DNA of 62,091 nucleotides from a virus. Taxonomy: Duplodnaviria; Caudoviricetes. Each line of letters opens with the position of its first letter. Position 1 is the first letter of the stretch. The position numbers and the translations under genes are program-made. The notes under the pieces were generated by a model. It made no database searches, was not told the origin of the DNA, and saw nothing but the letters and a program-made list of their open reading frames with translations. The stretch covers positions 1-62,091 of IMG/VR virus record IMGVR_UViG_3300031228_000005. One strand, given 5' to 3'. Positions 39,189 to 60,997 of this stretch are shown here, one piece after another.

Positions 39189-39893
39189 TTAGCCCCGTTC
39201 CCACCGAGAGGGTTTCTGGAAACGCTTCTTGATGGCCGAGGAGTACCGACGCCATGACTGGTCCGATGTGCTGATCCACGGGGTGCCAATGCCCGGTTGC
39301 TTGGTGCTGAGTTTGGCATCGTGGATCGGGTACGCCTCGATCTTGTTGAGCACCCCGTAGGCGGTCCTCCACTGCGGGACCGTGTCCGACATGCCCCCGT
39401 CCCACCTAGACAGGGCCTCCAACATGCCGTCAGGCTTGCAGACGAGCGGTCTGTGGGCCTCGTAGGAGTCTGGGTGGGGGAATCCTAGGCCGTCGAGCCA
39501 TGAGGCCGTCAGACGGAGACTCTTGGGCCACCACAGACCCACGTTGGGCGGGAAGTGCGCGATCTGCTCGGCCAAGGTGCAGTTGCGCTTGACCGGGAGG
39601 ATCGAACCTACGGGGTCGAGGCAGAAGAAGTCGTCGTTCATGTAGACGGCTTCTCCTGCCCCCATGTCAACGGCACACTCGGCTCCGAGCATCACGTTGT
39701 CGAACACAGCGAGCGGCATGGACTTGTAGTGGTTGCCGGGTAGGTGAACATCGGGCAGTAGCCACGACGGCTCGTAACCCACCGTCATCAGTTCGAGTCC
39801 ACCGGGTAGATGGAGGTTCGTCTCCCACGAGCGCAGTGCGTAGCGCAGTTCCTCGTTCACGTCTCCCGGTCGTACCGGGCAGATGAGCAGCAT
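39189..39893 (-). CDS. Stealth-family-like sugar-phosphate transferase
   Basis: NEELRYALRS and VYMNDDFF resemble Stealth CR2 motifs. Confidence 0.6.
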   Translation of the reverse strand: MLLICPVRPGDVNEELRYALRSWETNLHLPGGLELMTVGYEPSWLLPDVHLPGNHYKSMPLAVFDNVMLGAECAVDMGAGEAVYMNDDFFCLDPVGSILPVKRNCTLAEQIAHFPPNVGLWWPKSLRLTASWLDGLGFPHPDSYEAHRPLVCKPDGMLEALSRWDGGMSDTVPQWRTAYGVLNKIEAYPIHDAKLSTKQPGIGTPWISTSDQSWRRYSSAIKKRFQKPSRWERG

Positions 39894-40125
39894 GTCAGCC
39901 CTCCTCCTTCGGCAGGATGTTGAAGTACACCGTGGCTCCGTGACGCTCCCAGAGCATGACGTGGTTGCCGTCGAGGGTGTTTGTAACTCCTATGTCGTCC
40001 ATGTCAGCCTCCTATCTTGGTGTGCCACGCAACGTGGACTTCTGTGTCACCTGAGACCAGCAGAGCGGCGCAGGACAGGCAGCGGAGCAGGTCCGAGCCT
40101 GCGTGATACCACGGCATGAACTCGA

Positions 40126-40335
40126 TCATGCGGTCCTCCTCTCTCCATGTGGCATACGAGCGGCTTGGATCAGACGGAGGTCGGCGGGGATCTGATCCAC
40201 CTCGCGCACCATCAGGACGCGGCGTGACGAGCACCCGGCGCATAGAGGCTCACCGGGCTCACGGACTTTGCTGCCCTTGCGCAGGGCGGCGGGGGTCATG
40301 TGTCTCGACGGAGCGCCACAGTCTGCACACTTCAT
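40126..40335 (-). CDS. Small zinc-finger protein
   Basis: MKCADC...LCAGC. Confidence 0.55.
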   Translation of the reverse strand: MKCADCGAPSRHMTPAALRKGSKVREPGEPLCAGCSSRRVLMVREVDQIPADLRLIQAARMPHGERRTA

Positions 40336-40556
40336 AGTCTGATCCCTCTCCCGTTGTGCTTCTTGGTGATGTGCTTGTCGATCCGGTCCTCGATCACCTT
40401 CGAGCGTTGGTGGATGAACGTCGCGCCACACGAGCAGGCGGCTGCGTTTGACACCGGGTAGGAGATGATCGCCAACCCGACAGCCTTGGTACCGGGCTGG
40501 CTCAACTTGGCCTGCCGGTCAGCGGGTGTTGGTCGGTTTCCAGAAACCTCCATCAC
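40332..40556 (-). CDS. Small protein with C-x-C...H-x3-H motif
   Basis: ACSCG...HITKKH; coupled to neighbours. Confidence 0.6.
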   Translation of the reverse strand: MMEVSGNRPTPADRQAKLSQPGTKAVGLAIISYPVSNAAACSCGATFIHQRSKVIEDRIDKHITKKHNGRGIRL

Positions 40557-41134: not shown

Positions 41135-41502
41135 ACGTTCTCTCCTGACAGTGTGATGAGATTGGTGGTCTCGGTCGGTGGGTCGAGCCTGTCGGCCTGC
41201 TCCATCAGCCACAGGGACGGGATGGACGGGCCGTCCTGTACCCACGTCTTGCGAAGCCGTTGCAGGACCGCCTCCTCGCGCACGGTGCTGTAGCGATCAG
41301 CCGCGTCACGGAAGGCGATGGCGACAACCCGGTTGCTCGTGTAGTCCGCGATGTGCGCGATGCACTTGGCGTGGTTGGTGTCCTGCTGGTCTGCGAAGTC
41401 ACGCTCGACGTCGAGGACCCACGAGACCAGCCAGACCACGATCAGGGCCAGAGCGATCACAGCCAGCACGAGGCCGATGATGAGCCACCCTGCGGCGGTC
41501 AC
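41131..41502 (-). CDS. Membrane protein
   Basis: N-terminal TM helix. Confidence 0.7.
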   Translation of the reverse strand: MTAAGWLIIGLVLAVIALALIVVWLVSWVLDVERDFADQQDTNHAKCIAHIADYTSNRVVAIAFRDAADRYSTVREEAVLQRLRKTWVQDGPSIPSLWLMEQADRLDPPTETTNLITLSGENV

Positions 41503-41999
41503 AGCGATCCCTCCGCAGCCAGAAACTCAGCGTCGGTCCATGGTGCATCGCCCACCATCGCGGTCAAGAACCCGTCTTCTCCGCTGTCGTCGTCGTCGTC
41601 GCCATCGGTCAGGACCCCCCACGCCTCAGCCAGCCCGAACGACTCACGGCTGTCCTGAGTGCGTGGGTTGGCCTTCATGGAGACGAGGACACGCTGGCCC
41701 TCCGCGATGATGGCCTCGATCCGGGGATCGGCGTTGAAGTCGAACAATGTGAACAGCGCGATCAGGGTGCTTCGGTCCTCGTCGTCCAACACGGACAGGT
41801 CGAAGGTCACGTCGAGCGCGGTGTTGCGCCCGTCGTGGTTGCTGTACTCGACGGGGGTTTCTGGAAACAGATCCGCCATCTCCGCGACGAGAGTCTTGAT
41901 GGCCCAGCACACCCGCTTGCTGTTGGTTGCGACGATCCCGTTCTGGCGCTCCCGGATGGTCGCGTCCATGGGCTGCATCTTGTCGGTCTTCTCGCTCAT
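41499..41999 (-). CDS. Hypothetical acidic protein
   Basis: RBS AGAGGAGA before MSEKTDK. Confidence 0.75.
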   Translation of the reverse strand: MSEKTDKMQPMDATIRERQNGIVATNSKRVCWAIKTLVAEMADLFPETPVEYSNHDGRNTALDVTFDLSVLDDEDRSTLIALFTLFDFNADPRIEAIIAEGQRVLVSMKANPRTQDSRESFGLAEAWGVLTDGDDDDDSGEDGFLTAMVGDAPWTDAEFLAAEGSL

Positions 42000-42092: not shown

Positions 42093-42503
42093 TCACCCAT
42101 CGAGGCCCAACTCCTTTCGCACCCGAGCGGCCTCAGCCTTGACGAACGCGAGACCAATCTTGCGCTCCCTACGGATGCGCTGTTCATATCGGTCTTGCGA
42201 CAGGCGCTCAGACTGTTCCGGGGTTCGCTTCGCCTTCATCTTCGCGAACGCAGTCTCGAAGTTCGCCATCGCTTTCTTCATCGCACTAAGGAAGTCTGGT
42301 GGGTCCGATGGTGCGTACGGGTTGCGCTCCTGTGTGTACACAGCGATCTCCCGCAGGCTGTGCTCAAGAATCACCATCGGATCGTCAATGGGCAGACCGG
42401 CCCTGCCACACGCCCGGATGTGCAGCGTCAGGGCGTGGATCTGTTCGATGTGCCGAACCAGCGGGCCTCTCGGCAGGGTGGGGACGAACTCCTCTGTCCT
42501 CAT
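42093..42503 (-). CDS. Hypothetical protein
   Basis: ORF coupled to glycosyltransferase stop. Confidence 0.65.
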   Translation of the reverse strand: MRTEEFVPTLPRGPLVRHIEQIHALTLHIRACGRAGLPIDDPMVILEHSLREIAVYTQERNPYAPSDPPDFLSAMKKAMANFETAFAKMKAKRTPEQSERLSQDRYEQRIRRERKIGLAFVKAEAARVRKELGLDG

Positions 42504-43273
42504 GACCGAACCCCCATCAGGTTGCGCACGTGGGTGTACCCACCGCCCCGGATGTCAGCGCGCATTCTGACCAGTAGGGCTTTGTTGGCCCGCGTGGCAG
42601 CCACGTCAGCGTCGCTCAGATGGTCTCCCTTGTGTCCGGGGAGGTGGTACAGGTGGACGGCGGGGCCGTCAACGTACCGGGTCTCGTGCCCCGTGAGGAA
42701 GGCGAACCCCTCCTCAATGATCCTGTCGTCGTACCAGTTGCCGGACGTGGCCTCGGTGAACCCACCGACCTTCTCCAACGTGTCGGCGCTGATCACGTTG
42801 ACAGCCCCGATGGACTTGCCGTTGTCCATGGTGGACTCGGCTGTGATCTTGAAGATTGAGTCCGACCTGTCACGTGGGATGTCCCACCACGCGGCGATGG
42901 ACTCCGTCGACTTGTCGTGGTAGATGTTCCGGAGAAGCGAGGTGTTGTAGTCGGACCAGTACCGGTACTGCGTGAACGGCACGACCAGACCCGGCCTGTG
43001 CTCTGCCATCAACGCGGCGTCCACGATCTGGCTTGGGTGGATGAGCATGTCCGCCTCGGTGAACACGAACACGTCGGCGTCCGGGTTTCCAGAAACCGCT
43101 CGGTTGTAGGCGCGGTGCCGGTTGAACTGGGTGTCGCCCCTGAGCCCGTCACTCCATATCTGGGGCTCGAATCCGTGGGCGTACCACCACGCCTGTACGA
43201 TTTCGAGGTTGGCCGCTCTACGGGGGTCTGCACCCTCACGCAGGCGGAACGGGATGATGACTGCGATCTTCAT
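42500..43273 (-). CDS. GT-A fold glycosyltransferase (GT2/GT7-like)
   Basis: IAVIIPFR, FNRHRAYN, FTEADM, VGGFTE..GNWYDD, HLYH. Confidence 0.8.
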   Translation of the reverse strand: MKIAVIIPFRLREGADPRRAANLEIVQAWWYAHGFEPQIWSDGLRGDTQFNRHRAYNRAVSGNPDADVFVFTEADMLIHPSQIVDAALMAEHRPGLVVPFTQYRYWSDYNTSLLRNIYHDKSTESIAAWWDIPRDRSDSIFKITAESTMDNGKSIGAVNVISADTLEKVGGFTEATSGNWYDDRIIEEGFAFLTGHETRYVDGPAVHLYHLPGHKGDHLSDADVAATRANKALLVRMRADIRGGGYTHVRNLMGVRS

Positions 43274-43295
43274 GTGCTGCTCCTTTTCTGTCGGT

Positions 43296-43556
43296 CTATC
43301 GGGACGTGCTTGGGGTCTTCTCAGCGAGGAAGCCGATCTCCCCGAGAATCCACTCCAAGGCGACTACCTCCCACTCTGCGTACGCTGCGCCGCCAGAGCC
43401 GCCGCCGTTCTCCAAGCCCCCGGTCTCTTGGACCTGCGCCTCTAGGAAGCGCAGTCGCCGCAGGAGAAGGCGGGCGCTGCGCAACTCCTGCCGGGTGAAC
43501 TCACTGCGGGCGTCAGGGGCCTCGTGGTACTCACTCTTGCTCGGGTCGACCCTCAT
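43296..43556 (-). CDS. Hypothetical protein
   Basis: ORF coupled to helicase stop. Confidence 0.6.
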   Translation of the reverse strand: MRVDPSKSEYHEAPDARSEFTRQELRSARLLLRRLRFLEAQVQETGGLENGGGSGGAAYAEWEVVALEWILGEIGFLAEKTPSTSR

Positions 43557-44596
43557 AGGTCATCTTCCTCTCCGTCATCACTTTCGAGGTCTGCTTCTTC
43601 GTTGATGTCTGGCATGGACGTGAACGCCGCTGCCGCTGCGCCTGCCGGTAGGTGCATCCCTGCCAGTGTCATCGCACCGAGATCGAGGTCGACTAGGTGT
43701 GTCACACTATCAGGTGCGGTGACGACCACGGGTGTCATCATCGTCTGTCCGATTGCGGCGCGGTACTTCACCATCCGCAACTTCCTCTCCTCCAAGCCCG
43801 TACCCTCCACTGACACAATGCTATCGGCTACGTCATGGTGCACCGACGATCCACGAGCCTTGCCGGGGGTATTCTCGGTGGAGTGGACGATCACGATGAT
43901 CGCCTTGGCCCCCACCTCCGTGAGCGCGAACTTGATCAGATCGCGGTAGTGGGCCTGCGTCAGACCGGCGTCGTTCTGGTCGTGTGCGAAGAACGATGCG
44001 CTGAACGAGTCAATCATCACGACCTCGACGTTGCTGGCCTGCCATGCCGCCACGATCTGTGCACGCATCGCGGGCACCCCGAGCGGGTTGCCCCGCTTAT
44101 AGGCGTTGACGACGCTGACCTTGGCCGGGTCGATGTTCGGGAACCCGCTCATCCAGTCGAGCACCATCGCGGCGTCCATGTCGTAGGACATGATCCCGAC
44201 GCTGCCCATGATCGGCTTCGCCGGTTGGCCCAACCAGTCCTCCCCGGTCATGAGGCTGTTGAACATCTGCAAGCCCAGCGTGGACTTACCGGAGCCGGAC
44301 GGCCCGAGCATCAGGCACAGGCCGTTGGCCTTGACCACACCTTCGATCAGGTCGAGCGGGGCTGTTGCGGGGTTCGTCTTGTAGTTTGCCAATGTCACCA
44401 TCTCCAATACAGGGGTGCTATCTGCGTCGAGTTCTTGCTGGAATGTGAGTGCTGCCTCGTGCCTGACTCGAAGCCGCGCGGTCTCGTGTTCAACTTCTGT
44501 GTCGTGCTTGATCTTCTTGCGTAGCCTGTGCTCTGCCTCTGCTGCATCGGCTGCCACCTCCCACTCGACTCGCGCGGTTTCTGGAAACTGGATCAC
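43553..44596 (-). CDS. RecA/RepA-like AAA helicase
   Basis: Walker A GPSGSGKST, Walker B VVMIDS, VH...ARGSS. Confidence 0.85.
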   Translation of the reverse strand: MIQFPETARVEWEVAADAAEAEHRLRKKIKHDTEVEHETARLRVRHEAALTFQQELDADSTPVLEMVTLANYKTNPATAPLDLIEGVVKANGLCLMLGPSGSGKSTLGLQMFNSLMTGEDWLGQPAKPIMGSVGIMSYDMDAAMVLDWMSGFPNIDPAKVSVVNAYKRGNPLGVPAMRAQIVAAWQASNVEVVMIDSFSASFFAHDQNDAGLTQAHYRDLIKFALTEVGAKAIIVIVHSTENTPGKARGSSVHHDVADSIVSVEGTGLEERKLRMVKYRAAIGQTMMTPVVVTAPDSVTHLVDLDLGAMTLAGMHLPAGAAAAAFTSMPDINEEADLESDDGEEDDL

Positions 44597-44638: not shown

Positions 44639-45487
44639 TCAGTCCTTGCCGAACAGCGCCTCCGCTTCGGTGTCGAGATCATCGACAGTCACCCCGGCCC
44701 TGCGTAGGGCGCTGTCGATCGTCAGCGACACCTCGTCCTCGGTCAGGCCCAGCATGGTTGCGACATCGAACAACTCGTGCGGGTCGATCCCGTTGTCGAT
44801 GCACCGGCACACGGCCCAGTGCAGTGCGTTGTTGCGCTCGCCTGACTGACGCTCGGAGAGCCAGCCCTTGAGCGACGCGACCGAGGCCTGTCGTTCGTAG
44901 CCCAGCAGTTCGATGGGCTTCTTGGTCAGTTCGTTCATAGGGGCCAGCGACTTGACGATCAGGTCCCACAGCAGAGGCTCGTCCGTGGAGTTGGTCGTCT
45001 CGCCCATGTGCTCGTACGCACCCACCGACTTGTCCTCGTCATCGATCCACGAGGGGGGAGCCAGTACGTAGCCACCCTTGGAGCGCACATCGAGCCCGAG
45101 CAGGGCGTGGGCCTTGTTGGTGAGCCCCGGAGCGGCCTTGAAGTACAGGTGCCACCCGCCAGAGGGGGTCTTGACGACGTGCTTACAGCCGTTCAGGAGC
45201 CCCAGACGGTGCAGGCGGGGCAGATGGACCCTGCCGTCCGCGTCACCCTTAGAATCCACGTCCAGCACGTCCCAGACGATGCCTGTGGGGATGCCGATGG
45301 CCGCGTCACCGTGGTTGCGCCACCAGTTCTTGATCCTTTCCCTGTCGAGTGTCGCGTCGTGGAGCCCGTTCTTGGTCATCGGAGCCTTGGCCTTGACGCC
45401 TGTCGGGCGGCAGGGGAAGATGGGCTGACCGGACTTGACGAGCGCCTGCGCGGCGCGGTAGTAGGTGTTGGCAGAGGGGGCGCTCAC
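44639..45487 (-). CDS. Bifunctional primase/polymerase (Prim-Pol)
   Basis: PIFPC, IGIPTG..VLDVD, TPSGGWHLYF, DVRSKGGYVLAPPS, GERNN. Confidence 0.9.
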   Translation of the reverse strand: MSAPSANTYYRAAQALVKSGQPIFPCRPTGVKAKAPMTKNGLHDATLDRERIKNWWRNHGDAAIGIPTGIVWDVLDVDSKGDADGRVHLPRLHRLGLLNGCKHVVKTPSGGWHLYFKAAPGLTNKAHALLGLDVRSKGGYVLAPPSWIDDEDKSVGAYEHMGETTNSTDEPLLWDLIVKSLAPMNELTKKPIELLGYERQASVASLKGWLSERQSGERNNALHWAVCRCIDNGIDPHELFDVATMLGLTEDEVSLTIDSALRRAGVTVDDLDTEAEALFGKD

Positions 45488-46008
45488 CCTCGTGCTCGAT
45501 CAGCGAGCAGGACGTTGATCAGTGTGATCAGGTCACCGTTGGTCGGGCCGTACATCGCCGCCGCGCTATCGACCGCCGCTCGTTCTCGCTCGGTGAGGTC
45601 TGTGTTTCCAGAAACCTCGTGGACCTGAGACACCCGCTTGTCCTGCAACTCACGCTTCATCTTCTCGCCCATGGGCAGGTAGGCCAGCGGACTCATCAGG
45701 TCCATCTCGTGGGGCTCGATGCCCATGAGCGCTGCATTGTTCGCCAGCGCCTCGGCTGCCTTCTGGGACAACGTCGTCTTGCTGCGGGAATCGAGACCGA
45801 TGGCGCGCATCTTCTTGCGCACGGTGCCGGGTGAGACACCCAGCGCTGTCGCGATGTCGCGGTCGCTCATGAAGTTGGCCGCACCCTCATGTACGAGTCG
45901 AGTGAGCACCGCCTCGTAGCCAGAGAAGAACTCACTGCGGGCCTTGCCCCACTTCTCTCGTGCCTCGCGCAGACCTTCAAGCGCGATCACCACGTCGAGT
46001 CTCTTCAT
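45484..46008 (-). CDS. HTH DNA-binding protein
   Basis: MSDRDIATALGVSPGTVRKKM. Confidence 0.75.
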   Translation of the reverse strand: MKRLDVVIALEGLREAREKWGKARSEFFSGYEAVLTRLVHEGAANFMSDRDIATALGVSPGTVRKKMRAIGLDSRSKTTLSQKAAEALANNAALMGIEPHEMDLMSPLAYLPMGEKMKRELQDKRVSQVHEVSGNTDLTERERAAVDSAAAMYGPTNGDLITLINVLLADRARG

Positions 46009-46181: not shown

Positions 46182-47765
46182 CTAGCCGCGCGCGAACGTG
46201 CGGATGTGGTCGAGCAGGGCTTTCTCTAGATCACCCTTGTCCTTGTGCCTATCCAACATGATGTTGCCGATCAGCCCCGGAACGAAGCAGTTCCAGAACG
46301 TGACGTGCTTGCCCACCTGACCGTTGCGGTCAAGCCTACCCCGTGACTGCACCCAGTCGTTGCGTCGCTCGGACATAGACGCATAGACCGCGTTCTGTGC
46401 CGTGATCAACTCGTTGACCGACACGCTCATGGTGCGCTGCTGAGCCACGAGGATCGTGCGCTTCGGGTTTCTGGAAACGTCACCGAACCGGCGTCGGATG
46501 TCGAGCCTGTCGTTGGCCTTGGTCGCCCCAGTGATCAGGTCCACGTTGGTGTTCTTGTCGCGACGGAACAGGTCGGCCAGCATTGCGCACTCGGACTTGA
46601 AGTACGCGAACACCACGACTCGCTTCTCACCGGCCAGTTGGGTCTCCACCACCTCGCGCACGGTCTTGCGCATTGTGTCCCCGACGATGTGCACCTCACC
46701 GGACTCGGTGTCCTTGAGGAAGCCGCCGTGGATCTGGCGCAACTTCATCAACTTGGCGAGCACGTTGGGGACTTCGAGCAGTTCCCCGCTGTCGAGTTCA
46801 GCCGCCAAGTCCTCGGCCATCTCCTTGTACATCTTCGCTTCCTTGGGGCTCAGCGCGAAGTGCACGTCGATGTCTGTCACGGGTGGGAGATCGGGCAGCG
46901 CATCCTCCTTGCGCACCACGTGAGAGCGCTCAGCGATGCGGTCGTTCATCTCGTCTGCGTAGTCGTCATTCACACCGACAAGGGCCTTGCCCTTGTGCCC
47001 GCCCTTCTCTCCGTACCGCTGCTCGAACCTGCCGATGGGCCACGGGCGGATGCTCGCCTGCTGCGCCTTGGTCATCGTCAGCGGGTTCAGCGTGAACGCC
47101 TCGTGGTACTCATCGGAGAACGTCCACGGTGCGAGGAACCGCCACTGCCCGTACACGTCGAGGGGGGAGTTCGGGGCCACGGTCCCGGTCAGAATGATCC
47201 GGTGCGCGGACAACTGCCCCAACTGGTACATGACCTTCGACACGTTCGAGGTCGCAGCCTTGATGATGTGGCTCTCGTCCACCACGATCACGTGCGGGGC
47301 ATACTTGCGCACAGCCCGGAGCACGCGGATGGTGTCGGTGCGCTCCTTGCAGTAGGACGAGAGTGCGCCCGCGCTCATGGACAGGATGGTGACCTTGTTC
47401 CCGGCGATCTGCCGGGCCGTGGTGCCCTTGTGGTTGGCCTTGATCCCGGCGTCCGGTACGCCTGCCCAGTCGCGGGCCTTGGCGATCTTGAGCAGGAGGT
47501 CTCGCGTCGTGCCCTGCAACATGCGGGCCTTGACGGGTGAGTCCATGAACGGCGGGGCTTGGAAGACCCACGTGTCGGCGGCGGTCAGCGGTGCTACGAC
47601 CAGCACCCGGACCTCCTTCTGGCGTGCGGCCAGCGTATCGATCCATGCCAGTGTGGTGCCGGTCTTGCCGACACCGGGGTCGTAGAGCAGTGCGCCGATG
47701 CCATCAACGGATTCGAGGAACTTCACACCCTCGGCTTGGTGAGACATCAACTTGAACTTCGGCAT
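46182..47765 (-). CDS. SNF2-like (SF2) helicase
   Basis: DPGVGKT, VVDESH, LTGT, QSRGRLDRNGQ. Confidence 0.9.
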   Translation of the reverse strand: MPKFKLMSHQAEGVKFLESVDGIGALLYDPGVGKTGTTLAWIDTLAARQKEVRVLVVAPLTAADTWVFQAPPFMDSPVKARMLQGTTRDLLLKIAKARDWAGVPDAGIKANHKGTTARQIAGNKVTILSMSAGALSSYCKERTDTIRVLRAVRKYAPHVIVVDESHIIKAATSNVSKVMYQLGQLSAHRIILTGTVAPNSPLDVYGQWRFLAPWTFSDEYHEAFTLNPLTMTKAQQASIRPWPIGRFEQRYGEKGGHKGKALVGVNDDYADEMNDRIAERSHVVRKEDALPDLPPVTDIDVHFALSPKEAKMYKEMAEDLAAELDSGELLEVPNVLAKLMKLRQIHGGFLKDTESGEVHIVGDTMRKTVREVVETQLAGEKRVVVFAYFKSECAMLADLFRRDKNTNVDLITGATKANDRLDIRRRFGDVSRNPKRTILVAQQRTMSVSVNELITAQNAVYASMSERRNDWVQSRGRLDRNGQVGKHVTFWNCFVPGLIGNIMLDRHKDKGDLEKALLDHIRTFARG

Positions 47766-47947
47766 CTCTATCCTCTCTGTCTATCTCCGTGGTTTCTGGA
47801 AACGGTCTGCTCAGGTGAACCAGACGAGCCCCAACTTGATGAGCCCCATCACCATGAGAATGATGATCAACACCCCGACCATGCCCCAGAAGACGTTGGG
47901 GCCTTCGGTGCTGCCGTTCTCGATCGGTTCGTTCAGGTCCATGACTC

Positions 47948-52738: not shown

Positions 52739-53299
52739 TCAGTCGTCCAGATCGAACTCGGAGAGTAGGTCGTCCCACTCGTCCTCGGGTACGGCGGGGG
52801 TTCCCCGCTCGAACTGCTCCTCGGGTGTGAGCCCCAACCGAGGGGGCAGTATCACCTCAGCGGTGCACTCCTCGCAGAGCGTGGCACTGTCGTCGGCATC
52901 CAGTTCAAGACCACAGCCCTCGCAATCGTGGAGCCCCGACACTTCCTCCTCGGGCTCAGCCTCCTGTTTCTGGAAACCCCGAGCCGGTGTGCCGCACTCC
53001 TCACCCGTGGCCCAGCCCTTCTCGTCCACGTGGGTGTAGTGCAGGTCGCCGTCCACATCGAACGGCCATGCCAGACACTCCACGATGGGACGGCCACAGC
53101 CACCACACTCGAACTCCTCGCCGTAGTGGCAGGCACACGGGCAGGGGGTGAACACCTTCTTGGGGTTGGCTCTGCTGCCTCCCCCGTTGCGGGCACACCT
53201 GTCGTGGCTGGACTGCGGATCGCTGGTCACCGGGAACGAACAGTGCCCCGATGGGATGAGCGCGCCGATGGGCTCGGCTACTACCTGTGTCTCAGTCAT
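52739..53299 (-). CDS. Cys-rich zinc-binding protein
   Basis: CPCACH, CGGC, CEGC...CEEC. Confidence 0.7.
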   Translation of the reverse strand: MTETQVVAEPIGALIPSGHCSFPVTSDPQSSHDRCARNGGGSRANPKKVFTPCPCACHYGEEFECGGCGRPIVECLAWPFDVDGDLHYTHVDEKGWATGEECGTPARGFQKQEAEPEEEVSGLHDCEGCGLELDADDSATLCEECTAEVILPPRLGLTPEEQFERGTPAVPEDEWDDLLSEFDLDD

Positions 53300-53562: not shown

Positions 53563-53828
53563 GACTGGGGCTCCCGCTTCAACTCGTTGCGACGCCTGAG
53601 GTTGGCCTTGTTCGCGTCGCCTGCCCCATAGGTCTCCTCCTCCTCGTGGGTCATGACGAACAACGCCAGTCTCAACCGACGGGCCTCGTCATCCAGAGCC
53701 GTCACCTTGAGTTGCTTGCGGCGGTACTGCTGTTCGTAGTCACGCGCGTCAGCCTCGGCGTCGTTCTGCCTGCGCAGCACGACGTCCAGTTCTTCCTCCA
53801 TGCGCTCGGTCAGGTTCTTCTCGCTCAT
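53559..53828 (-). CDS. Coiled-coil hypothetical protein
   Basis: MSEKNLTERM; ATGA coupling. Confidence 0.65.
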   Translation of the reverse strand: MSEKNLTERMEEELDVVLRRQNDAEADARDYEQQYRRKQLKVTALDDEARRLRLALFVMTHEEEETYGAGDANKANLRRRNELKREPQS

Positions 53829-55855
53829 GCTTCCTCCTCGATGTCGAACATGGCCTCGGGCGGCTTGCCCTCCCAAGTCTTGCGGCGGTCACCCTCGGGT
53901 GCGATGACCGGGACCTTGTCGGGCTTGATGACCAGCGACTCGATCTGCGGGTAGACCTCCTTGCCCAGCACCTTCTCTGCCACGGTGGGACTGACCAGCG
54001 TGGGGTTGGTCCACAACTGGGTTAGCGTCTCGTCAGGCAGGGCAACACGCCCCTCCTCCACGGTGAGGGCGGGATCGAGTCGGTTGATGGCGTCACCCTT
54101 CCACGTACGACGCGGGGTGTAGTTGACCAACTGGTAGCCGGGCACGGACCCGCCCCGGTGCAGTCGGCGCTGCGCCTCGGCCTTGAGGTCCTTGTAGATG
54201 CTGTGCAGACCAGCGACCATGGTGAGCAGTTCGCCCAACTTGTCGTCCGGCAGTAGCGTGGTTTCTGGAAACGCACCCGGACCATCGGTGAACTCGGCGT
54301 CCACGATGGTGTCGAACAGACCCGCCGCCGACTCCACCCGCTGCTCAGTCAGTGCAGGGCACGAGCCACGAGCCGGGCACCACTGGCAGGCCAACTCACT
54401 CGGCTCGAAGGTGGCCCCCTCGTGTTGCCCGTACAGAGCCTTGGTCAGGGCCGGGGCCAGCACCTCGTCCCGCCACGTGAGCAGGTCGTCGATGGTCTCG
54501 GTCCACGTCTTGATGCCACCGAGCCGGGGCTGGATGATGTGGTAGACCACGTCCTCCACCCACATTGGAAGTTCGCCGGTCTCCTCGTCAGCCAGCAGTT
54601 CCAGCATGGCGAGCGCGTAGAGGCGGATCTGTGGGTTCTCATCCACGTCCACATCCTTGCCCTCGCCGTACTTGAGGTCGCCCACCACGAGCGACTTGGT
54701 CTCGGGGGTGCCGCCCTTGACGGGCAGACCCACGAAGTCAGCCGATCCACGCACGACGTAGACCTCACCCTCGTGCATGTCGGTGAGCGGGATGCCCGCC
54801 TCGCCACGTGACTCGATCAGGATGTGATCGTTGCCCCGCTCCTGTGCGTAGGACTTCACGAGGTCGACGTACTCCGCGACGTACTCTGCCATCTCGTCGT
54901 CGTACGCCTCACCCTCATCCTCGGGCAGGACGGACAACTCCATGAGCGTGTACTCGACCTCCTCGGCTGAGACACGACCTAGCACCATGTTCGCCTCGAC
55001 CTCGCCCACCGCGTGAGCCGTGGTCCCTTGCCGCGCAGCCGTGGTGCCGGATGCGAACGCCCGCTGCTGGTTGGGCGAGAGGGTTTCCAGAAACTCCCGG
55101 CTCAGGCTCAGGCTCATGGTGCAGTTCATCCAGCGCTCGGCACCGGACGGGCCAGCACCAGCGTGGTTGTCAAAGACGTAGTCCTTGACACCGGGGATAC
55201 CGAGGAACAGCGGAGGCGGGGTGGCTTCCTCACGGGCAGCCGCCATCTCCGCGAACATCTGCTCGGGGTCGAGCACGTCGCTGTCCACACCGGCATCATG
55301 CAACACCTCCTCGACCACGGCAACGGGAGCGCCATCGAGTTCGGTCAGCAGTCGCTCGATCTCGTCCGGGTGGTCAGCCTCGAAGCCTGCGTCCTCCCGC
55401 TCGTCGTACCCCTGCGGGACGAACGAGTGCGGCGGGTCAACCCTGTCGTGGGCCGACTCCTCGGTTCCGCACTTGCACGCGGGGTCGTCGTAGACCACAC
55501 CGTCAGGCAGTTCCTCCTCATCGAGGATGTCAAACATGGACTCACCCATCGGCTCGAAGGGGTTGGCGTAGTCCTCCTCGTCGGCCATGATGTCGAGGTC
55601 GTTGCGAACTTCAGGCTCCGCCTCGATGCGCTCGGTGTCGTCAGCGTCGTCGGGCTCGGGGCGCTCCTCTGCCTCACGAGCCAGCCGCTCCTCGCACACC
55701 ATGTCGATGAGGTCGGGCCACGAGACCTGAGCCCATGCCTCGGGGTCGGACTCGTAGCCGTGCGTGTTCACGAGTTCCTTGATCAGGTTCTTCTTGCTCA
55801 TGCCACCGGGCGCGGTGGGGTGAGCGTCGGGGTAAGCCGGATTCTGGCTGGTCAT
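53825..55855 (-). CDS. Cas4-like PD-(D/E)XK exonuclease (DUF2800-like) with long acidic N-terminal extension
   Basis: GPSGAERWMNC, GTTAH, GSAD, DLKYG, QIRLYA, CQWCPARGSC. Confidence 0.85.
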   Translation of the reverse strand: MTSQNPAYPDAHPTAPGGMSKKNLIKELVNTHGYESDPEAWAQVSWPDLIDMVCEERLAREAEERPEPDDADDTERIEAEPEVRNDLDIMADEEDYANPFEPMGESMFDILDEEELPDGVVYDDPACKCGTEESAHDRVDPPHSFVPQGYDEREDAGFEADHPDEIERLLTELDGAPVAVVEEVLHDAGVDSDVLDPEQMFAEMAAAREEATPPPLFLGIPGVKDYVFDNHAGAGPSGAERWMNCTMSLSLSREFLETLSPNQQRAFASGTTAARQGTTAHAVGEVEANMVLGRVSAEEVEYTLMELSVLPEDEGEAYDDEMAEYVAEYVDLVKSYAQERGNDHILIESRGEAGIPLTDMHEGEVYVVRGSADFVGLPVKGGTPETKSLVVGDLKYGEGKDVDVDENPQIRLYALAMLELLADEETGELPMWVEDVVYHIIQPRLGGIKTWTETIDDLLTWRDEVLAPALTKALYGQHEGATFEPSELACQWCPARGSCPALTEQRVESAAGLFDTIVDAEFTDGPGAFPETTLLPDDKLGELLTMVAGLHSIYKDLKAEAQRRLHRGGSVPGYQLVNYTPRRTWKGDAINRLDPALTVEEGRVALPDETLTQLWTNPTLVSPTVAEKVLGKEVYPQIESLVIKPDKVPVIAPEGDRRKTWEGKPPEAMFDIEEEA

Positions 55856-55919: not shown

Positions 55920-56309
55920 CTAGTCGTCCTGCCCGTTCAGGTTGTGCCCGACACACGGGCCGAACCCTTGAGCCACACTGGCAGCACAGGCCAGCATGAC
56001 CATGAACCCCTCGACATCGGCAGTGAACCCCCCGCATCCGCCAGCCGCCAGCACACGCCCGACGAACAGCCGCTGCTTGACGGTCGGCCCCTTGAGCAGG
56101 GCCTTCTCGACGGACTTGCCGTAGGTCTCGGGTGCCTTCACCTCGTTAGCGATGAACACACCATCGAGCACGCACAGCAGGTCGGACACACCGGCCTCCC
56201 CGAACTGCGAGCCGTGGTACTTCACGGTCACGAGCCGGTCGCCGTACTTGTCACGGCCAGCGTCGCGCTGCTTCTTGATCAGTTTGGTCTCGGGTCCTTC
56301 GCGTCCCAC
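55920..56309 (-). CDS. VRR-NUC / Holliday junction resolvase-like nuclease
   Basis: ET, K.HGS..AGVSDL, NEVK, Q..F. Confidence 0.8.
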   Translation of the reverse strand: MGREGPETKLIKKQRDAGRDKYGDRLVTVKYHGSQFGEAGVSDLLCVLDGVFIANEVKAPETYGKSVEKALLKGPTVKQRLFVGRVLAAGGCGGFTADVEGFMVMLACAASVAQGFGPCVGHNLNGQDD

Positions 56310-56494
56310 TACAGATCATCCTCCTCGAAGCATTCAGGGAGAGGCTTGTCCTGCTCCCACTTGGGTCCGGTCTTCCTTCCGGGGTTTCCAGAAACGGTGC
56401 TACGCCTAGCACGGCGTACAGCCCAGCCGATGATCAGGAAGATCACAGCCCATTCGATCAGACCGATGACCACCGGGCCGGTGAGCCCCTCCAT
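56309..56494 (-). CDS. Small membrane protein
   Basis: TM helix after MEGLTG. Confidence 0.55.
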   Translation of the reverse strand: MEGLTGPVVIGLIEWAVIFLIIGWAVRRARRSTVSGNPGRKTGPKWEQDKPLPECFEEDDL

Positions 56495-56495
56495 G

Positions 56496-56894
56496 TCACT
56501 CGTGCCACGGGCCGAAGTGACCAGACAGGACCATGTTGATTGCGACCGCCGTCTCGGAGTAGGTCTCCACGTTGACACCACGGGTGTACTCGTAGAAGGT
56601 CTCCGGGTCGCAGAGCGTCATGCTGATCGGCTCCCAGATGGCACCGTCCGACAGCACCACCCAAGCATGCCCGATAGCCACGGGCTCCGGTCCCTGCCAC
56701 ATGCCGTGGACCAGAGTGACCGGGGTCGGGAGACCCAGATACTCGATCTGCTCAGCCTTGTCCGGCCAGTCGGTGAATGCCCAAGCCGCGAGTTCGTAGC
56801 AGTGGGTCAGTCGTTCCCTGAGTACCGGCTTGTCGTCGGCCCCTGCATAGTCGAAGACGCACCGAGCACCCATCGAGAGCAGTACGTCGTTCAT
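56496..56894 (-). CDS. Hypothetical protein
   Basis: CYE...LVHG...GHAWV motif. Confidence 0.65.
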   Translation of the reverse strand: MNDVLLSMGARCVFDYAGADDKPVLRERLTHCYELAAWAFTDWPDKAEQIEYLGLPTPVTLVHGMWQGPEPVAIGHAWVVLSDGAIWEPISMTLCDPETFYEYTRGVNVETYSETAVAINMVLSGHFGPWHE

Positions 56895-57358
56895 CACAGC
56901 ACCCACTCCGCGAGGGAGAACGAGATGATTGCCACGATCAGCGCCACGAAGGCGAGACCACAGCACCACAGTGCTACTACCTCCCAGTCGACGCGCTGCC
57001 AGATCGTCGGCTTGGGCAGTCCGCCGTATCCCCGTCGAATCTCTCGCCGCTTGAGTGTGATCTTGAGACGGCGCGGCACCCAGCGCCACCACCACGGGCG
57101 AGGCTTGAACCGGGCCCCACCCGTGAGCAAGGCGAGCAGGTTGGGGTCGACATCAGACAGGCACATGTCCAGTGTGTACGTGTTCCTGATTCTGTCCCAC
57201 CCCTCGATGACTAGATCCTCGTCAGGGTCCGGGTGGATGTTCAGCGACACGGCGGTGCTGTCGAGCGTCAGCCCTTCCCCGATGGGGTTGCCCTGCTCAT
57301 CGAGTCGCCACACGGTGATCCCGTTTCCAGAAACCGTGATCTTCGGTTCGTCAGTCAT
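56894..57358 (-). CDS. Tail-tube-protein-like fragment fused to C-terminal TM helix
   Basis: ITVWRLDEQGNP and YTLDMCLSDVDPNLLALLTG match the major tail IRVTRLDSCGDP and YTADIALCGVDPGLISLLTG. Confidence 0.65.
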   Translation of the reverse strand: MTDEPKITVSGNGITVWRLDEQGNPIGEGLTLDSTAVSLNIHPDPDEDLVIEGWDRIRNTYTLDMCLSDVDPNLLALLTGGARFKPRPWWWRWVPRRLKITLKRREIRRGYGGLPKPTIWQRVDWEVVALWCCGLAFVALIVAIISFSLAEWVL

Positions 57359-58335: not shown

Positions 58336-58593
58336 TCAGGTGGGGTCGGGCAGGCTCCGAAGAACCCGCTCGACCAGTTCGGGCTGATCGGTTTGGAAGC
58401 CGAGCAACAGGGCCGTCATGTCCAGCACTGCTTTGTTGTGCGCCCGCTTCTGGTCATTGCCCCCGTCCGTCAGCATGTCGGCTGCCAGATACAGCAGGCC
58501 CGTCGCCGGGATCGTGGTAGCCACAGCCCGGAGCAGGATCGCGAAGTCGCTGATCCTCGCGGGCTCCGGGTTTCCAGAAACTGCGCCGCTCAT
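58336..58593 (-). CDS. Hypothetical protein
   Basis: ATGA overlap with VWA stop. Confidence 0.6.
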   Translation of the reverse strand: MSGAVSGNPEPARISDFAILLRAVATTIPATGLLYLAADMLTDGGNDQKRAHNKAVLDMTALLLGFQTDQPELVERVLRSLPDPT

Positions 58594-60665
58594 AGCAGTG
58601 CCCTCGCCGCTTCGTCCCACACCTGCTCGGGGTGCTTCGCGTTGTAGCGCAGCACCTTGGAGGTACCCCGCTGGATCACGCAACCCCGCAGGATCTCGGG
58701 GAGGTTCGAGCCCCGGTCGGTGTAGTCGTGCGGTGCGACCGTGACCATGTTGACCCCGGCTGCCATCGCCTGACTGATCCTCGGACCCGAGTGCCGGGCG
58801 CCGAACAACTGCCAGTCGGTGAACTGCACCAGCAGGCGGTGCTCCGGTCGCTCCCCGATGTCGAAGAAGCCGGGCATCTGCTCCTCCACCAGATCGAGGG
58901 CCTCGGCCATGGCGCTCGTGCCCTCGGCGCACGGCACCTCGCGGATACCGGGGAGCGTCTGCCCGTTCTTCTGGATCACCCGAGCGTCGTTGCCCCAGTG
59001 GATCAGCGTCGACTCCAACTGCTGGCCTCGACCCGCGAAGTTGCGCAGGTCCAGAGCCGCGCTCGCCAGCGCCCAAGACAGCAGGGCACTCGGCTTCTGC
59101 AACTCGTTCATCGAGGACGACACATCCACGAGGATGGCGACCTTGACCGGAGGACTGGACTCGACCTCGCGGCGGGTGCGCTTGAAGAACCTCGGCTCAC
59201 GTGTTCCGCCGTCTGCCTTCCACGCGGCCAGCGCAGCGGCATCGACCGTCGCGCTCGGTGACTCGGACAGGGACACCACGCTCGTCTCCGTGGGGGAGAT
59301 GAGGTCGCGAAGGAATCGCTCGGCACCCTTCTGGATGTTGCGCTCCTCCTTGGTCGGGGCACGCCAGCCGCCACCCCTGTTGCCCTCGCCGCCAGCACCA
59401 CCGGACAGGCCACCCGTCTCCATCGGGGGAGTCTTGGCCTCCTCGTCCTTGGCCTCACCCTTGGCGTCGAACTTGGACCGGGCCTCCATCTCAGCCAGTT
59501 CCGCAGCCAGTTCCTCATCAGCCTCGGAGGGCTCGGTGCTATCGCTAGCACCGTCCTCATCCTCGCCCCCCTCGCTGTCCTCAGAGCCGTCTCCCGGCTC
59601 CTCGTCCTCGGGCTGGCCCTCTGCCCCACCGGACTCCTGCTCGGCGCTCTCGCCCCCCTCCTCGCCAGCCTCAGCCTCTGCGTCGAGGGTGCACTCATCG
59701 AACTCACACCCGGAGTTGGGCTGGGGCATGTCGTCGGCATCGGTTTCTGGAAACAGCAGGGCCAGCACGTCGCGAGCGTGGTCGATCATGGTTGACCCCT
59801 TGTCATCCTCGCACCGGAGCATGGCGATGAGCAGGTCCATGACGTGCTTGGTGTCGGCGTGTGCGTCACCGAGGACTCCGAGACCACCATCGTCCCGTTC
59901 AGACATGTGCTTCACCAGCGTCATGTGAAGCAGGGTCGTGAAGTCCTGCACCCAGTCACGCGGGGTGTGGCTGTTGTCGTGTGCGAACACCGCGATCTGT
60001 CGCCCGGCTCGCAGTGCCCACGAGGTGATCAGGTCCATGATCTTCTGGTTGGCATCGGTGATGGTGAGCACCGTGGTCGGGATCAGGTGGGCCGCGCTCG
60101 CACGCATGGTCCAGTCCAGCCCAGCCGCGCCGATCTTCGCAGCGTCGCGAGCCTGCAACCCCTCGATGCGCGGCTCCTCCATCATCCGGGCCAGTGCGAT
60201 GATCGCCTTGGTCGGCACGGCCCCGTCGCTGTGACGGGCGGGCGTGACCCTCGCCTGCTCGGCGGTGCGGGGCAGCCAGTGCGAGTGCCGTGCGTGGCCC
60301 GCCTCGTGCAACATGCACCCGGTGAGCACCGCCTCCTGCCGCAGCCGGAACGGGGTCACCGTGTTGAGCACCCGGTGCGGGTTGAGGATCAGCGACTCGT
60401 GGAACGTGAAGGTCCGGGTCGTGTGGTCCACGTCCGCGAACGGGCTGGCGCTGGGGGTGCCGAACACCAGCGTGGCGTCGGACCAGCCACTCCACTCGCG
60501 GATCTTCTTGTTCAGTGCTCGGATCGCGTCACCGGAAATCTGCACTGGCTGTACCTCGACAGGCGCGGGCTTCTCAGGTGCAGCCGGGGTGGTGCTAGGC
60601 GTAGCACCGGCTGCCTTGGTGGACGGGGTGCCGAGTGCGTTGGAGACATCTTGCTTGAGACCCAT
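58590..60665 (-). CDS. VWA-domain protein (CobT-like) with HExxH motif
   Basis: HEAGH...EEPRIE, acidic linker, MIDAS DVSSSM, GT, QFTD. Confidence 0.85.
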   Translation of the reverse strand: MGLKQDVSNALGTPSTKAAGATPSTTPAAPEKPAPVEVQPVQISGDAIRALNKKIREWSGWSDATLVFGTPSASPFADVDHTTRTFTFHESLILNPHRVLNTVTPFRLRQEAVLTGCMLHEAGHARHSHWLPRTAEQARVTPARHSDGAVPTKAIIALARMMEEPRIEGLQARDAAKIGAAGLDWTMRASAAHLIPTTVLTITDANQKIMDLITSWALRAGRQIAVFAHDNSHTPRDWVQDFTTLLHMTLVKHMSERDDGGLGVLGDAHADTKHVMDLLIAMLRCEDDKGSTMIDHARDVLALLFPETDADDMPQPNSGCEFDECTLDAEAEAGEEGGESAEQESGGAEGQPEDEEPGDGSEDSEGGEDEDGASDSTEPSEADEELAAELAEMEARSKFDAKGEAKDEEAKTPPMETGGLSGGAGGEGNRGGGWRAPTKEERNIQKGAERFLRDLISPTETSVVSLSESPSATVDAAALAAWKADGGTREPRFFKRTRREVESSPPVKVAILVDVSSSMNELQKPSALLSWALASAALDLRNFAGRGQQLESTLIHWGNDARVIQKNGQTLPGIREVPCAEGTSAMAEALDLVEEQMPGFFDIGERPEHRLLVQFTDWQLFGARHSGPRISQAMAAGVNMVTVAPHDYTDRGSNLPEILRGCVIQRGTSKVLRYNAKHPEQVWDEAARALL

Positions 60666-60697
60666 GGCGAGCCTCCTCTCTGTTGGATGGAGTGGTG

Positions 60698-60997
60698 CTA
60701 CTGGTTTCTGGAAACCTCGGTCTGTCTGAGGATCGCGGCGATCTGAACGATCGCGTTGTAGTCGTCGCCAAAGTCGTCATCGAACAAGGCCCTCATCCGC
60801 TCGATGCTCTGCTCGAAGGTGAGCGGTGCGGGTGGGGGCTCGACCTCGAAGTAGATGGTGTCCGGGAACAGGGTCGCGGACTTGGCTACGTGCTCGGCTG
60901 TCCACACATCCACGCTGTCACCCATCTGATCGATGCAGAGCACACCGTTCTCGTCGGTCGCGGCGTAGTAGAACGTCATCAGATGTTCCTCTCCCAT
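60698..60997 (-). CDS. Hypothetical protein
   Basis: ORF between AAA and VWA genes. Confidence 0.55.
   Translation of the reverse strand: MGEEHLMTFYYAATDENGVLCIDQMGDSVDVWTAEHVAKSATLFPDTIYFEVEPPPAPLTFEQSIERMRALFDDDFGDDYNAIVQIAAILRQTEVSRNQ

Follow-up and report, generated by a model that had tools for sequence, protein, structure and literature searches.

Exact GTTTC/GAAAC palindromes recur at bounded distances along the genomes of two phage lineages

The virus record IMGVR_UViG_3300031228_000005 of an uncultured phage from soil (Duplodnaviria; Caudoviricetes), which was analysed over its whole length of 62,091 bp and is rated 100% complete (the window, or G000), contains 50 exact copies of the 12-bp palindrome GTTTC-YR-GAAAC, and the evenness of their distribution supports selection on the distance between sites itself. 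An initial annotation of this DNA had drawn attention to evenly spaced 12-bp sites, whose motif reads GTTTCYRGAAAC. The copy number expected from dinucleotide-preserving shuffles was 0.00–0.03. On the plus strand, the two central bases were TG in 27 sites, CA in 21 and CG in 2. The arms tolerated little variation: among their ten bases, no copy with one mismatch was found in the window and nine with two. Outside the palindrome only position -1 showed a preference, for G, and there was no extended hairpin. Orphan half-sites numbered 30, and specific avoidance of them was rejected because other TTT-containing pentamers gave similar counts (14–26). Since the gene for a MoxR-type AAA_5 ATPase is cut by both ends of the record, continuing from 1-186 (-) at 61116-62090 (-), the linear record appears to be a circular permutation, or a terminally redundant genome, opened inside this gene, and gaps between sites were treated as circular.

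The coefficient of variation (CV) of all gaps in the window was 0.448, while random placement gave a mean of 0.98 (standard deviation 0.13) and a value this low arose in 0/200,000 simulations. The largest gap was 3198 bp against a random mean of 5590 bp (P=0.002), and 96.8% of bases lay within 1 kb of a site, with a maximum distance of 1599 bp, against 80.8% under random placement (0/300 simulations). The initial annotation had reported 19 consecutive gaps from 39212 to 60704 and gaps of 720-1162 bp from 2086 to 8065, and recomputation returned exactly these values; its estimate that about 30% of exponential gaps would fall in 662-1492 bp is also arithmetically right (0.29 at a mean of 1235). 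The 19-gap region has a CV of 0.197. Its post hoc choice was allowed for by taking the best 19-gap run of each random set, and none of 20,000 sets reached 0.197 in any such run, the minimum being 0.346. The two largest gaps fall where they had been placed, the 3198-bp gap within a 1275-aa open reading frame (ORF) with weak similarity to an annotated tape measure protein (E=3e-8) and the 2577-bp gap across the terminase gene. The capsid gene, whose product has 30% identity to an annotated major capsid protein (E=1e-57), is likewise flanked by sites 20141 and 22113 and not interrupted.

Gene organization does not account for this regularity. Two gene-aware null models were used, one placing all sites at random gene starts and the other distributing 17 of them among random intergenic gaps and the remaining 33 over genic DNA; under both models, 0/20,000 placements were as even as those observed in each of the window and two related genomes, G002 and G003. 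There are 50 sites for about 88 genes (our own gene calls), and long genes hold two or three internal sites. When 212 gaps from five genomes were pooled (genomes of shared ancestry, so that the gaps are not independent samples), gaps below 500 bp numbered 14 against 69 expected, gaps above 2500 bp numbered 7 against 29.6 expected, and gaps above 4000 bp numbered 0 against 9.1 expected. The evenness thus goes beyond random placement, and short and long gaps are both depleted while gene-boundary models fail, as expected from the proposal of the initial annotation that the distance between sites is selected rather than one site per gene or transcription unit.

The same annotation had set this spacing against a role as per-gene operators. 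The spacing rule and the failure of the gene-boundary models bear out the selection of distance, but the intergenic sites go against the dismissal of operators. In the window, 17 sites are intergenic against 4.1 expected, a four-fold enrichment. In five genomes of the same lineage, here called lineage A (G000 and G002–G005), 33 of the 87 intergenic sites lie 10–25 nt upstream of a start codon, where 17.9 were expected, and 12 of the 42 located in gaps of at least 100 nt do so. On the sense strand, the centres of intergenic sites in these genomes were CA in 58 cases and TG in 17 (P=2e-6), and within 30 nt of a start the ratio was 37 CA to 7 TG. Sites in genes lean the opposite way (71 TG, 48 CA), likely because GTT-TCT-GGA-AAC, read as VSGN, is the most tolerated reading. 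The intergenic enrichment, the proximity to start codons and the orientation together point to an operator-like component that coexists with the spacing rule.

Selection on the DNA word is also visible inside genes. In the window, 33 of the 50 sites are in genes, in all three frames and both orientations, where they are read as VSGN, VSRN, FLET, FPET, FQK or FWK. The genome of G002 (63,954 bp; 48 copies, CV 0.50) is collinear with the window at about 70% nucleotide identity, with 60% identity in the capsid protein. Of the 27 window sites in alignable DNA, 24 have a counterpart at the homologous position of G002; with flanks that are about 74% identical, ten bases would all stay unchanged by chance in about 5% of cases. 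Where a site was present in one genome only, the peptide differed, with VSGN in the window and PSAT or AAGK in G002. The centre differed among TG, CA and CG at four homologous places, indicating that its orientation is not essential. Across orthologues, in-gene sites mostly keep their alignment column: both sites of the tape-measure-like ORF do so in 4/4, the two polymerase sites in 5/6 and 6/6, and the helicase and SNF2 sites in 6/6 each. In the orthologues of a 1043-aa ORF (a 3.1-kb gene), the site has one of three arrangements depending on the genome (column 791; column 528; columns 486 and 1093 together), and has been relocated rather than lost.

To follow the lattice beyond these genomes, viral contigs were scanned for the pattern and whole records were counted; totals of carriers are therefore at least those given, among the matches listed. 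No near-identical phage record was present in a collection of 50,697 records, and the nearest cultured phages by terminase had only 35–41% identity. Even spacing was found in G003 (60,930 bp, 53 sites, CV 0.48), G004 (49,370 bp, 37 sites, CV 0.43) and G005 (41,160 bp, 29 sites, CV 0.34), with 0/5000 simulations as even in each case. With G002, these make four large relatives of the window that are regular (CV 0.34–0.50; 0/5000 or 0/50,000 simulations), the lattice was also present in G007, G010 and several fragments, and mean spacing across lattice genomes was 1.1–1.45 kb. In a search by terminase alignment, the lattice was found in 13/13 loci at 57% identity or more, at 0.37–1.02 sites per kb, and sites were found in 0/3 loci at 31–38% identity. 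These data suggest that the lattice is a clade trait. The lineage is common, since the early protein encoded at 1230-2069 has 212 metagenome homologues, all unnamed, on contigs of up to 62 kb. Among cultured distant relatives, Curtobacterium phage Kithara and Brevibacterium phage LuckyBarnes (first 50,000 of 50,774 bases) have no lattice, and Clavibacter phage CN1A (first 50,000 of 56,789 bases) has no palindrome with 5-bp arms in more than three copies.

A second lineage, B, uses the same arms. It comprises G006 (58,059 bp, with direct terminal repeats, rated complete), G008, G009 and L163, and its structural genes differ from those of lineage A. By BLASTP, phmmer and family profiles, G006 has in common with the window only the DUF2800 nuclease, the Enc34-type single-stranded DNA-binding protein (SSB), the MoxR ATPase, a VWA/HExxH protein and the primase-polymerase Prim-Pol; an SNF2-type ATPase common to both at the Pfam level brings the number to six, and two small G006 ORFs match ORFs of other lineage A genomes. 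G006 has 24 copies of GTTTC-N-GAAAC and 17 of GTTTC-NN-GAAAC, and the joint array of 41 sites has a CV of 0.61 (P=0.0006). The two forms are partitioned: the 1-bp form is found in non-structural genes (0.5–20 kb and 54–57 kb), and the 2-bp form at 21–54 kb, mainly in the structural arm. One homologous intergenic place is occupied by the 2-bp form in G006 and by the 1-bp form in G008 and G009, indicating that the forms are interchangeable. A scan for the pattern with a 1-bp centre revealed no new lineage among the 120 stretches listed.

A clue to the host came from the terminase alignment, in which a 7.9-kb contig with 62% identity was binned in a metagenome-assembled genome (MAG) of Nocardioides sp. 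(G011, 3.4 Mb); this one binned contig tentatively suggests a Nocardioides-like host. All 30 motif copies of the MAG were on 7 contigs, among them C642 (= L264), the contig with the phage terminase, and C629, with 16 copies in 23 kb. These seven contigs are read as fragments of one lineage A phage, C642 being the one examined. Because TA centres are frequent in the phage contigs of this MAG, the centre can be taken as any YR step. In contigs C94, C247, C534, C629 and C642, most of the listed centres were TA (GTTTCTAGAAAC), a centre that the other lineage A genomes have seldom or not at all. The motif had 0–5 copies in each of 150 other genomes of the candidate host family, with control counts of 0–2 and one outlier whose control count was equally high. 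Three of these 150 genomes are flagged as unpublished, and the result stands without them. This near absence indicates that the word marks phage DNA and not the candidate host family. A Chi-like site of the host, one of the possibilities raised by the spacing, was excluded because the motif is missing from the genomes of that family.

From the exactness, the symmetry, the YR centre, the absence from candidate hosts, the conservation and the bounded spacing, we infer protein binding, a dimeric state and action at a distance: the 12-bp sites would be where a sequence-specific protein, symmetric and probably a dimer, docks on duplex phage DNA and acts over about 1 kb, a reading to which we give roughly an even chance. 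It would recognize a pair of inverted gGTTTC half-sites separated by a deformable pyrimidine-purine centre. Ten invariant bases would be long enough to be nearly absent from a host chromosome of a few Mb, and could thereby label phage DNA as 'self'. Selection would keep the sites neither crowded nor distant, with every base within about 1–1.6 kb of one; given this bounded distance, the bound factor would act over that range, by sliding, spreading, bridging or blocking, on the whole chromosome and not on single genes. A site would be placed in non-coding DNA where available, typically just upstream of the ribosome-binding site, and elsewhere it would be accommodated within a reading frame, with some penalty for the protein. 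Action over about 1 kb is realistic in view of KorB, a ParB-family clamp that is loaded at palindromic operators and reaches promoters as far as 1.5 kb away by sliding (PMC11790492).

Several observations weigh against a docking site for a dimer. Scans of about 70 proteins of the window against Pfam and PHROGs detected only one weak helix-turn-helix (HTH), in the 174-aa protein encoded at 45484-46008. The two lineages share only replication, recombination and MoxR/VWA proteins, and any dimeric regulator common to both would need to have diverged beyond detection. Centres of 1 and 2 bp interchange in lineage B, which is unexpected if the reader is a rigid dimer; very divergent phages have the same unvarying arms, unlike fast-evolving phage regulators and their operators; and the intergenic polarity of 58 CA to 17 TG is left unexplained by a purely symmetric reader. 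With no reader found, the tolerance for 1- and 2-bp centres and the arms invariant across lineages keep alive readings based on priming, on a Chi-like function and on host ParB, which are weighed below with the other alternatives, from the more to the less probable.

Two candidate readers were examined by structure prediction. The model of the early protein 1230-2069 has a confident eight-helix domain (pLDDT 79.6), with no Foldseek match at E<=0.001 and, in a wide fold search, only helical matches (Z<=6.6). The fold searches argue neither for nor against this protein as a sequence-specific reader, and no homologue of it was detected in lineage B. The model of the HTH protein was built from 6 sequences only (pLDDT 71.3), and its best Foldseek rows were MntR/DtxR-type regulators at E=0.07-1, which is not significant. 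In this protein and its orthologues, an invariant peptide, SPLAYLPMG, follows the HTH. The peptide may serve for docking to a replication partner; a search of the lineage B ORFs did not find it. When 11 of 12 chosen small lineage A families were compared as profiles with 52 G006 proteins, 0/572 pairs had a probability of 40% or more.

The sites might instead be single-strand signals at which Prim-Pol and the helicase start lagging-strand primers or load, with the spacing setting the length of Okazaki fragments and the palindrome putting the motif on either strand. Prim-Pol is among the only six proteins common to both lattice lineages, bacterial and T4 Okazaki fragments are of the order of the mean spacing of 1.1–1.45 kb, and the exactness of the sites together with the depletion of short and long gaps fits an obligatory start signal. 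A tolerance for 1- and 2-bp centres is also easier to reconcile with a single-strand reader than with a rigid dimer, and the polarity of unconstrained sites with gene direction could represent replication direction if forks leave the divergent region. On the other hand, known primase recognition sites are about three bases long, we know of no primase that needs a 12-base palindrome, half-signals on both strands need no palindrome, and any hairpin would be very weak (5-bp arms, 1–2 nt centre). In addition, LuckyBarnes has a related module of nuclease, polymerase and primase and yet no lattice, and the GC skew shows no sign of a replication origin in the window. We therefore regard priming as somewhat unlikely.

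Alternatively, a transcription regulator of the phage could use the lattice as closely set operators or roadblocks, with in-gene copies stopping read-through or spurious transcription. The intergenic enrichment, the excess of sites just upstream of start codons and the orientation of intergenic sites with transcription all speak for this. Nevertheless, two thirds of the sites are in genes, at conserved columns of essential ones (polymerase, helicase, tape-measure-like ORF) and oriented unlike the intergenic sites, and gene-boundary models fail. Lysogenic silencing is unlikely too: no integrase, partition protein or repressor was found in the roughly 70 proteins scanned, about 18 small ORFs being outside the scan. 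As an explanation of the whole array, operators are unlikely. The stoperators of Cluster A phages provide a comparison; they are dozens of asymmetric 13-bp sites, about one per 1.5–2 kb, for one phage protein, in temperate phages with a repressor. The present sites resemble them in being dozens and genome-wide. Unlike stoperators, which are asymmetric, oriented with transcription and mostly intergenic, they are symmetric and mostly in genes, and only their intergenic copies have a biased orientation; nor did the proteins scanned include the repressor and the integrase or partition genes of a temperate stoperator phage.

Closer in architecture are the repeats of two other groups of actinobacteriophages, with which the present motif shares invariant inverted arms and a short variable centre in many copies per genome. 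The available text on Cluster EG Microbacterium phages describes an 18-bp repeat in 8-10 copies, 14-22 bp upstream of start codons (PMC7302621). In bases 30000-61703 of phage OneinaGillian, we found this repeat to be ATCAACC-(CG/CA/TG)-GGTTGAT, that is, arms around a YR centre as in the lattice; many copies of the lattice are likewise intergenic and near start codons, and the terminases are 35% identical. This match of architecture fits a docking site and also favours operators, but the EG repeat, as far as described there, has all its copies intergenic and in the right arm only, with different arms (ATCAACC against GTTTC) and no lattice. In Cluster O mycobacteriophages, a 17-bp repeat, TGTTCGG-NNN-CCGAACA, occurs in 34 invariant copies in the ~70 kb genome of Corndog, about one third of them coding; its asymmetric centre has no meaningful orientation, no function is known for it, and the authors, who expect a dimeric protein to bind it, liken the repeats to stoperators in their distribution (PMC4351075). 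Cluster O phages thus share with the window tens of invariant short palindromes genome-wide and the lack of lysogeny genes. Their arms are 7 bp with a 3-bp centre. The lattice differs further in having two of every three sites within genes and in being regular genome-wide; even spacing is not described in the available part of that paper. A search with MoxR gave no Cluster O match, and no shared proteins were detected. Whereas repeats of the O and EG type are mainly intergenic, near starts and in the right arm, 17 of the 50 sites here are intergenic and the array is genome-wide and regular.

The arms themselves suggest a further alternative. The sequence GTTTCACGTGAAAC, which we take to be the canonical parS consensus, occurs in one or two copies in four of the five complete genomes of the candidate host family, with a one-base variant in the fifth. 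The phage arms GTTTC and GAAAC are the arms of GTTTCACGTGAAAC, with a centre of 1–2 bp instead of 4 bp and with a flanking G instead of the T or C of the host sites. The lattice could therefore be read by host ParB: the arms of the host centromere site would have been copied and the centre shortened (a 'crippled parS'), and host ParB would be captured or loaded along the viral chromosome. If true, such capture could serve to coat the phage DNA or to position it, or could deplete the host of ParB, and it would explain why the same arms occur in two near-unrelated lineages, why the arms do not drift and why neither a reader nor a ParB gene was found in the phages. ParB_N and HTH_ParB (PF02195, PF17762; six-frame hidden Markov model search, E<=1) were detected in 0/5 lattice genomes, where a very divergent member could escape, and the controls were positive in 11 and 14 of 14 known genomes. 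KorB with its OB operators in plasmid RK2, and ParB with parS, resemble the lattice in having scattered palindromes, on a replicon of ~60 kb, that are read by a dimer which then acts at a distance. RK2 has about 12 OB operators, against 50 sites here. A ParB-type site is a palindrome of 13–16 bp with half-sites about 8 bp apart and a 4-bp centre, whereas the centre is 2 bp in lineage A and 1–2 bp in lineage B. We consider capture of host ParB doubtful.

A Chi-like function of the phage's own appears improbable. The sites would stop a phage nuclease-helicase composed of the DUF2800 nuclease and the SNF2 ATPase, so that host DNA is destroyed and phage DNA is spared within about 1 kb. Both proteins are common to the two lattice lineages, the motif is missing from candidate host genomes, a palindrome reads the same from both directions, and bounded spacing puts a site near every part of the genome. 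Known Chi sites, however, are 5–8 bases long, asymmetric and owned by the host; no such phage system is described in the literature searched, LuckyBarnes has a related nuclease and no lattice, and the link of the nuclease or ATPase to any DNA sequence is purely putative.

Still less probable is a covalent mark, with every copy nicked or modified by an enzyme of the phage, similar to the site-specific single-strand interruptions of some other phages. Exact palindromes are typical of many restriction and modification enzymes, and the even distribution has no explanation in gene expression. A small ORF at 50130-50429 (-), directly downstream of the polymerase gene, has a T5orf172/MUG113 (GIY-YIG-like) domain that could belong to such an enzyme, but among the relatives compared it is present in the window only, and it is missing from lattice-bearing relatives; it may be a homing-endonuclease-like insert. 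No gene for a DNA methyltransferase or base modification was detected, the sole methyltransferase being TylF-like (a sugar O-methyltransferase family), and tolerance for 1- and 2-bp centres is unusual for such enzymes.

Finally, a word imposed by the host, common or required there like uptake sequences, HIP1 or host Chi, is hardly credible. The uptake sequences (USS and DUS) of Pasteurellaceae and Neisseriaceae are words of ~10-12 bp that occur once per 1.1-1.2 kb, largely in genes and significantly evenly spaced, according to the available text of PMC1939737, and the lattice resembles them in exactness, density, location in genes and even spacing; the presence of the same word in two unrelated phage lineages would also fit. 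The uptake sequences are, however, the cell's own non-palindromic words serving DNA uptake, and the present word is viral, palindromic and absent from candidate hosts. The 30 copies of the MAG are all on the 7 contigs read as phage fragments, and the 150 other genomes show no over-representation (0–5 copies, control counts 0–2), which largely refutes a host word for the family searched, the host assignment being tentative.

Searches of the literature returned no description of this motif, or of a regular lattice of this kind in a phage, and no work on Nocardioides phages; two motif strings occurred only in papers on mammalian subjects. Repeated palindromes of actinophages have been in print since 2015 without a function. 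What is new here is a bounded distance between sites that is kept even at the cost of a changed protein sequence, in a word that is absent from candidate hosts and can thus tell viral from cellular DNA, and that is used by two lineages with little in common beyond replication and recombination genes. If a reader is found, it would establish how a small virus can act on its chromosome as a whole by means of a sequence code with a length scale near 1 kb, whether the purpose is protection, compaction, replication or silencing, and it would provide a handle for engineering or detecting such phages.

The sites and the genes that bear on them are listed in Table 1. The structural arm of the window runs rightward (8.5–39.2 kb), and the early and replication arm runs leftward from 7.5 kb through the record ends to 39.2 kb.

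Table 1. Positions of the 12-bp sites in the window (centres on the plus strand) and of genes common to the two lineages or considered as candidate readers
Feature	Position	Strand	Centre	Context
Site	207-218		TG	Intergenic, 20 nt upstream of MoxR start codon (186, - strand)
Site	418-429		CA	Within ORF 355-1119 (-), read VSGN
Site	2086-2097		CG	Intergenic, 16 nt upstream of ORF 1230-2069 (g3); TG at homologous G002 place
Site	3157-3168		CG	Within ORF 2898-3701 (-)
Site	4133-4144		TG	Intergenic, 16 nt upstream of ORF 3817-4116 (-)
Site	5295-5306		TG	Intergenic
Site	6239-6250		TG	Intergenic (non-coding 5791-6433)
Site	6959-6970		TG	Intergenic, 18 nt upstream of ORF 6731-6940 (-)
Site	8065-8076		CA	1042-bp divergent non-coding region 7493-8534
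Site	8158-8169		CA	Divergent non-coding region 7493-8534; 93 bp from site 8065, the smallest gap
Site	9944-9955		TG	3' end of ORF 9275-9991 (+)
Site	12521-12532		TG	Within ORF 12465-13370 (+); kept in G002
Site	13798-13809		TG	Within 648-aa ORF 13735-15681 (+); same alignment column in 6/7 orthologues (column 39 in G002)
Site	15238-15249		TG	Within ORF 13735-15681 (+); missing at homologous G002 place (VSGN vs PSAT)
Site	15902-15913		TG	Within 830-aa ORF 15678-18170 (+, NUDIX domain)
Site	16383-16394		TG	Within ORF 15678-18170; same column in 6/7 orthologues
Site	17325-17336		TG	Within ORF 15678-18170; absent in G002
Site	18959-18970		CA	Within ORF 18326-19156 (+)
Site	20141-20152		CA	Intergenic, upstream of capsid gene
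Site	22113-22124		TG	Intergenic, 14 nt downstream of capsid gene
Site	24102-24113		CA	Intergenic, 17 nt upstream of ORF 24131-24841
Site	24864-24875		CA	Intergenic, 14 nt upstream of ORF 24890-26161; TG at homologous G002 place
Site	25721-25732		CA	Within ORF 24890-26161
Site	26161-26172		CA	Overlaps stop codon of ORF 24890-26161
Site	28390-28401		CA	5' end of ORF 28370-28873
Site	29807-29818		CA	Intergenic, 48 nt upstream of ORF 29867-30280
Site	31062-31073		TG	Within 1275-aa tape-measure-like ORF; same column in 4/4 orthologues
Site	34260-34271		TG	Tape-measure-like ORF; 3198 bp from site 31062, the largest gap; same column 4/4
Site	35642-35653		CA	Intergenic, 17 nt upstream of ORF 35671-38802
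Site	37510-37521		TG	Within 1043-aa ORF 35671-38802; other columns in G003 and G004
Site	39212-39223		TG	3' end of ORF 39189-39893 (-)
Site	40536-40547		CA	5' end of ORF 40332-40556 (-)
Site	41857-41868		TG	Within ORF 41499-41999 (-)
Site	43085-43096		CA	Within ORF 42500-43273 (-); TG centre in G002
Site	44577-44588		TG	5' end of AAA_25 helicase-like ORF 43553-44596 (-); same column in 6/6 orthologues
Site	45604-45615		CA	Within HTH ORF 45484-46008 (-)
Site	46467-46478		TG	Within SNF2 ORF; same column 6/6; CG centre in G002
Site	47792-47803		TG	Intergenic, 26 nt upstream of SNF2 start
Site	48454-48465		CA	Within family A DNA polymerase ORF; same column 6/6
Site	49858-49869		TG	Within family A DNA polymerase ORF; same column 5/6
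Site	50828-50839		TG	Intergenic, 18 nt upstream of ORF 50513-50809 (-)
Site	51939-51950		CA	Intergenic, 81 nt upstream of SSB gene
Site	52966-52977		TG	Within ORF 52739-53299 (-)
Site	54261-54272		TG	Within DUF2800 nuclease ORF; absent in G002
Site	55083-55094		CA	Within DUF2800 nuclease ORF; same column 5/5
Site	56384-56395		CA	Within ORF 56309-56494 (-)
Site	57323-57334		CA	5' end of ORF 56894-57358 (-)
Site	58570-58581		CA	5' end of ORF 58336-58593 (-)
Site	59743-59754		TG	Within VWA/HExxH ORF
Site	60704-60715		TG	3' end of ORF 60698-60979 (-)
279-aa early protein (8-helix N-domain, disordered Lys/Ala/Pro tail)	1230-2069	-		Site 16 nt upstream; candidate coat or reader protein
Prim-Pol primase-polymerase	44639-45487	-		One of six proteins common with lineage B; candidate reader if the sites serve priming
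174-aa HTH protein	45484-46008	-		Just upstream of Prim-Pol; conserved in lineage A; candidate reader
SNF2-family ATPase	46182-47765	-		Common with lineage B at Pfam level
Enc34-type SSB, Lys/Ala/Pro tail	51084-51857	-		Common with lineage B
DUF2800 / PD-(D/E)XK nuclease, 230-aa N-terminal extension	53825-55855	-		Common with lineage B
691-aa protein (HEAGH motif, acidic linker, C-terminal VWA-like DxSxS motif)	58590-60665	-		Read from sequence; common with lineage B
MoxR-type AAA_5 ATPase, 3' part	61116-62090	-		5' part at 1-186 (-); common with lineage B

The 691-aa protein encoded at 58590-60665 (-) matched no Pfam or PHROGs family; it has the HExxH sequence HEAGH near residue 120, an acidic linker of about 100 aa and a C-terminal DVSSS (MIDAS-like), and its combination with the MoxR ATPase resembles a CobS/CobT- or MoxR/VWA-type pair. 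The 830-aa head-region protein (15678-18170, +) has its NUDIX domain at residues 105-215, and the product of ORF 9275-9991 (+) is similar to a 'DNA binding protein' adjoining the terminase gene of phage Kithara. In the early arm, a second palindrome, GTGCTA-N4-5-TAGCAC, was observed at about 4170-4200 and 7000-7030, approximately 25–45 nt upstream of sites 4133 and 6959 (- strand), and is likely an early promoter or operator element. Lattice-free phages have repeats of their own. Kithara (L012/L013) contains a perfect 16-bp palindrome, GTTCAGTGCACTGAAC, in 13 copies that are mostly intergenic, in the right arm and at intervals of 0.7–3.5 kb, and that go unmentioned in the annotation of its record. 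The non-palindromic sequences CGAAAGGAAC, with 13 copies in 21 kb of L404, and AAGGAACCGAAATGA, with 7–9 copies in LuckyBarnes, may be start-associated sequences.

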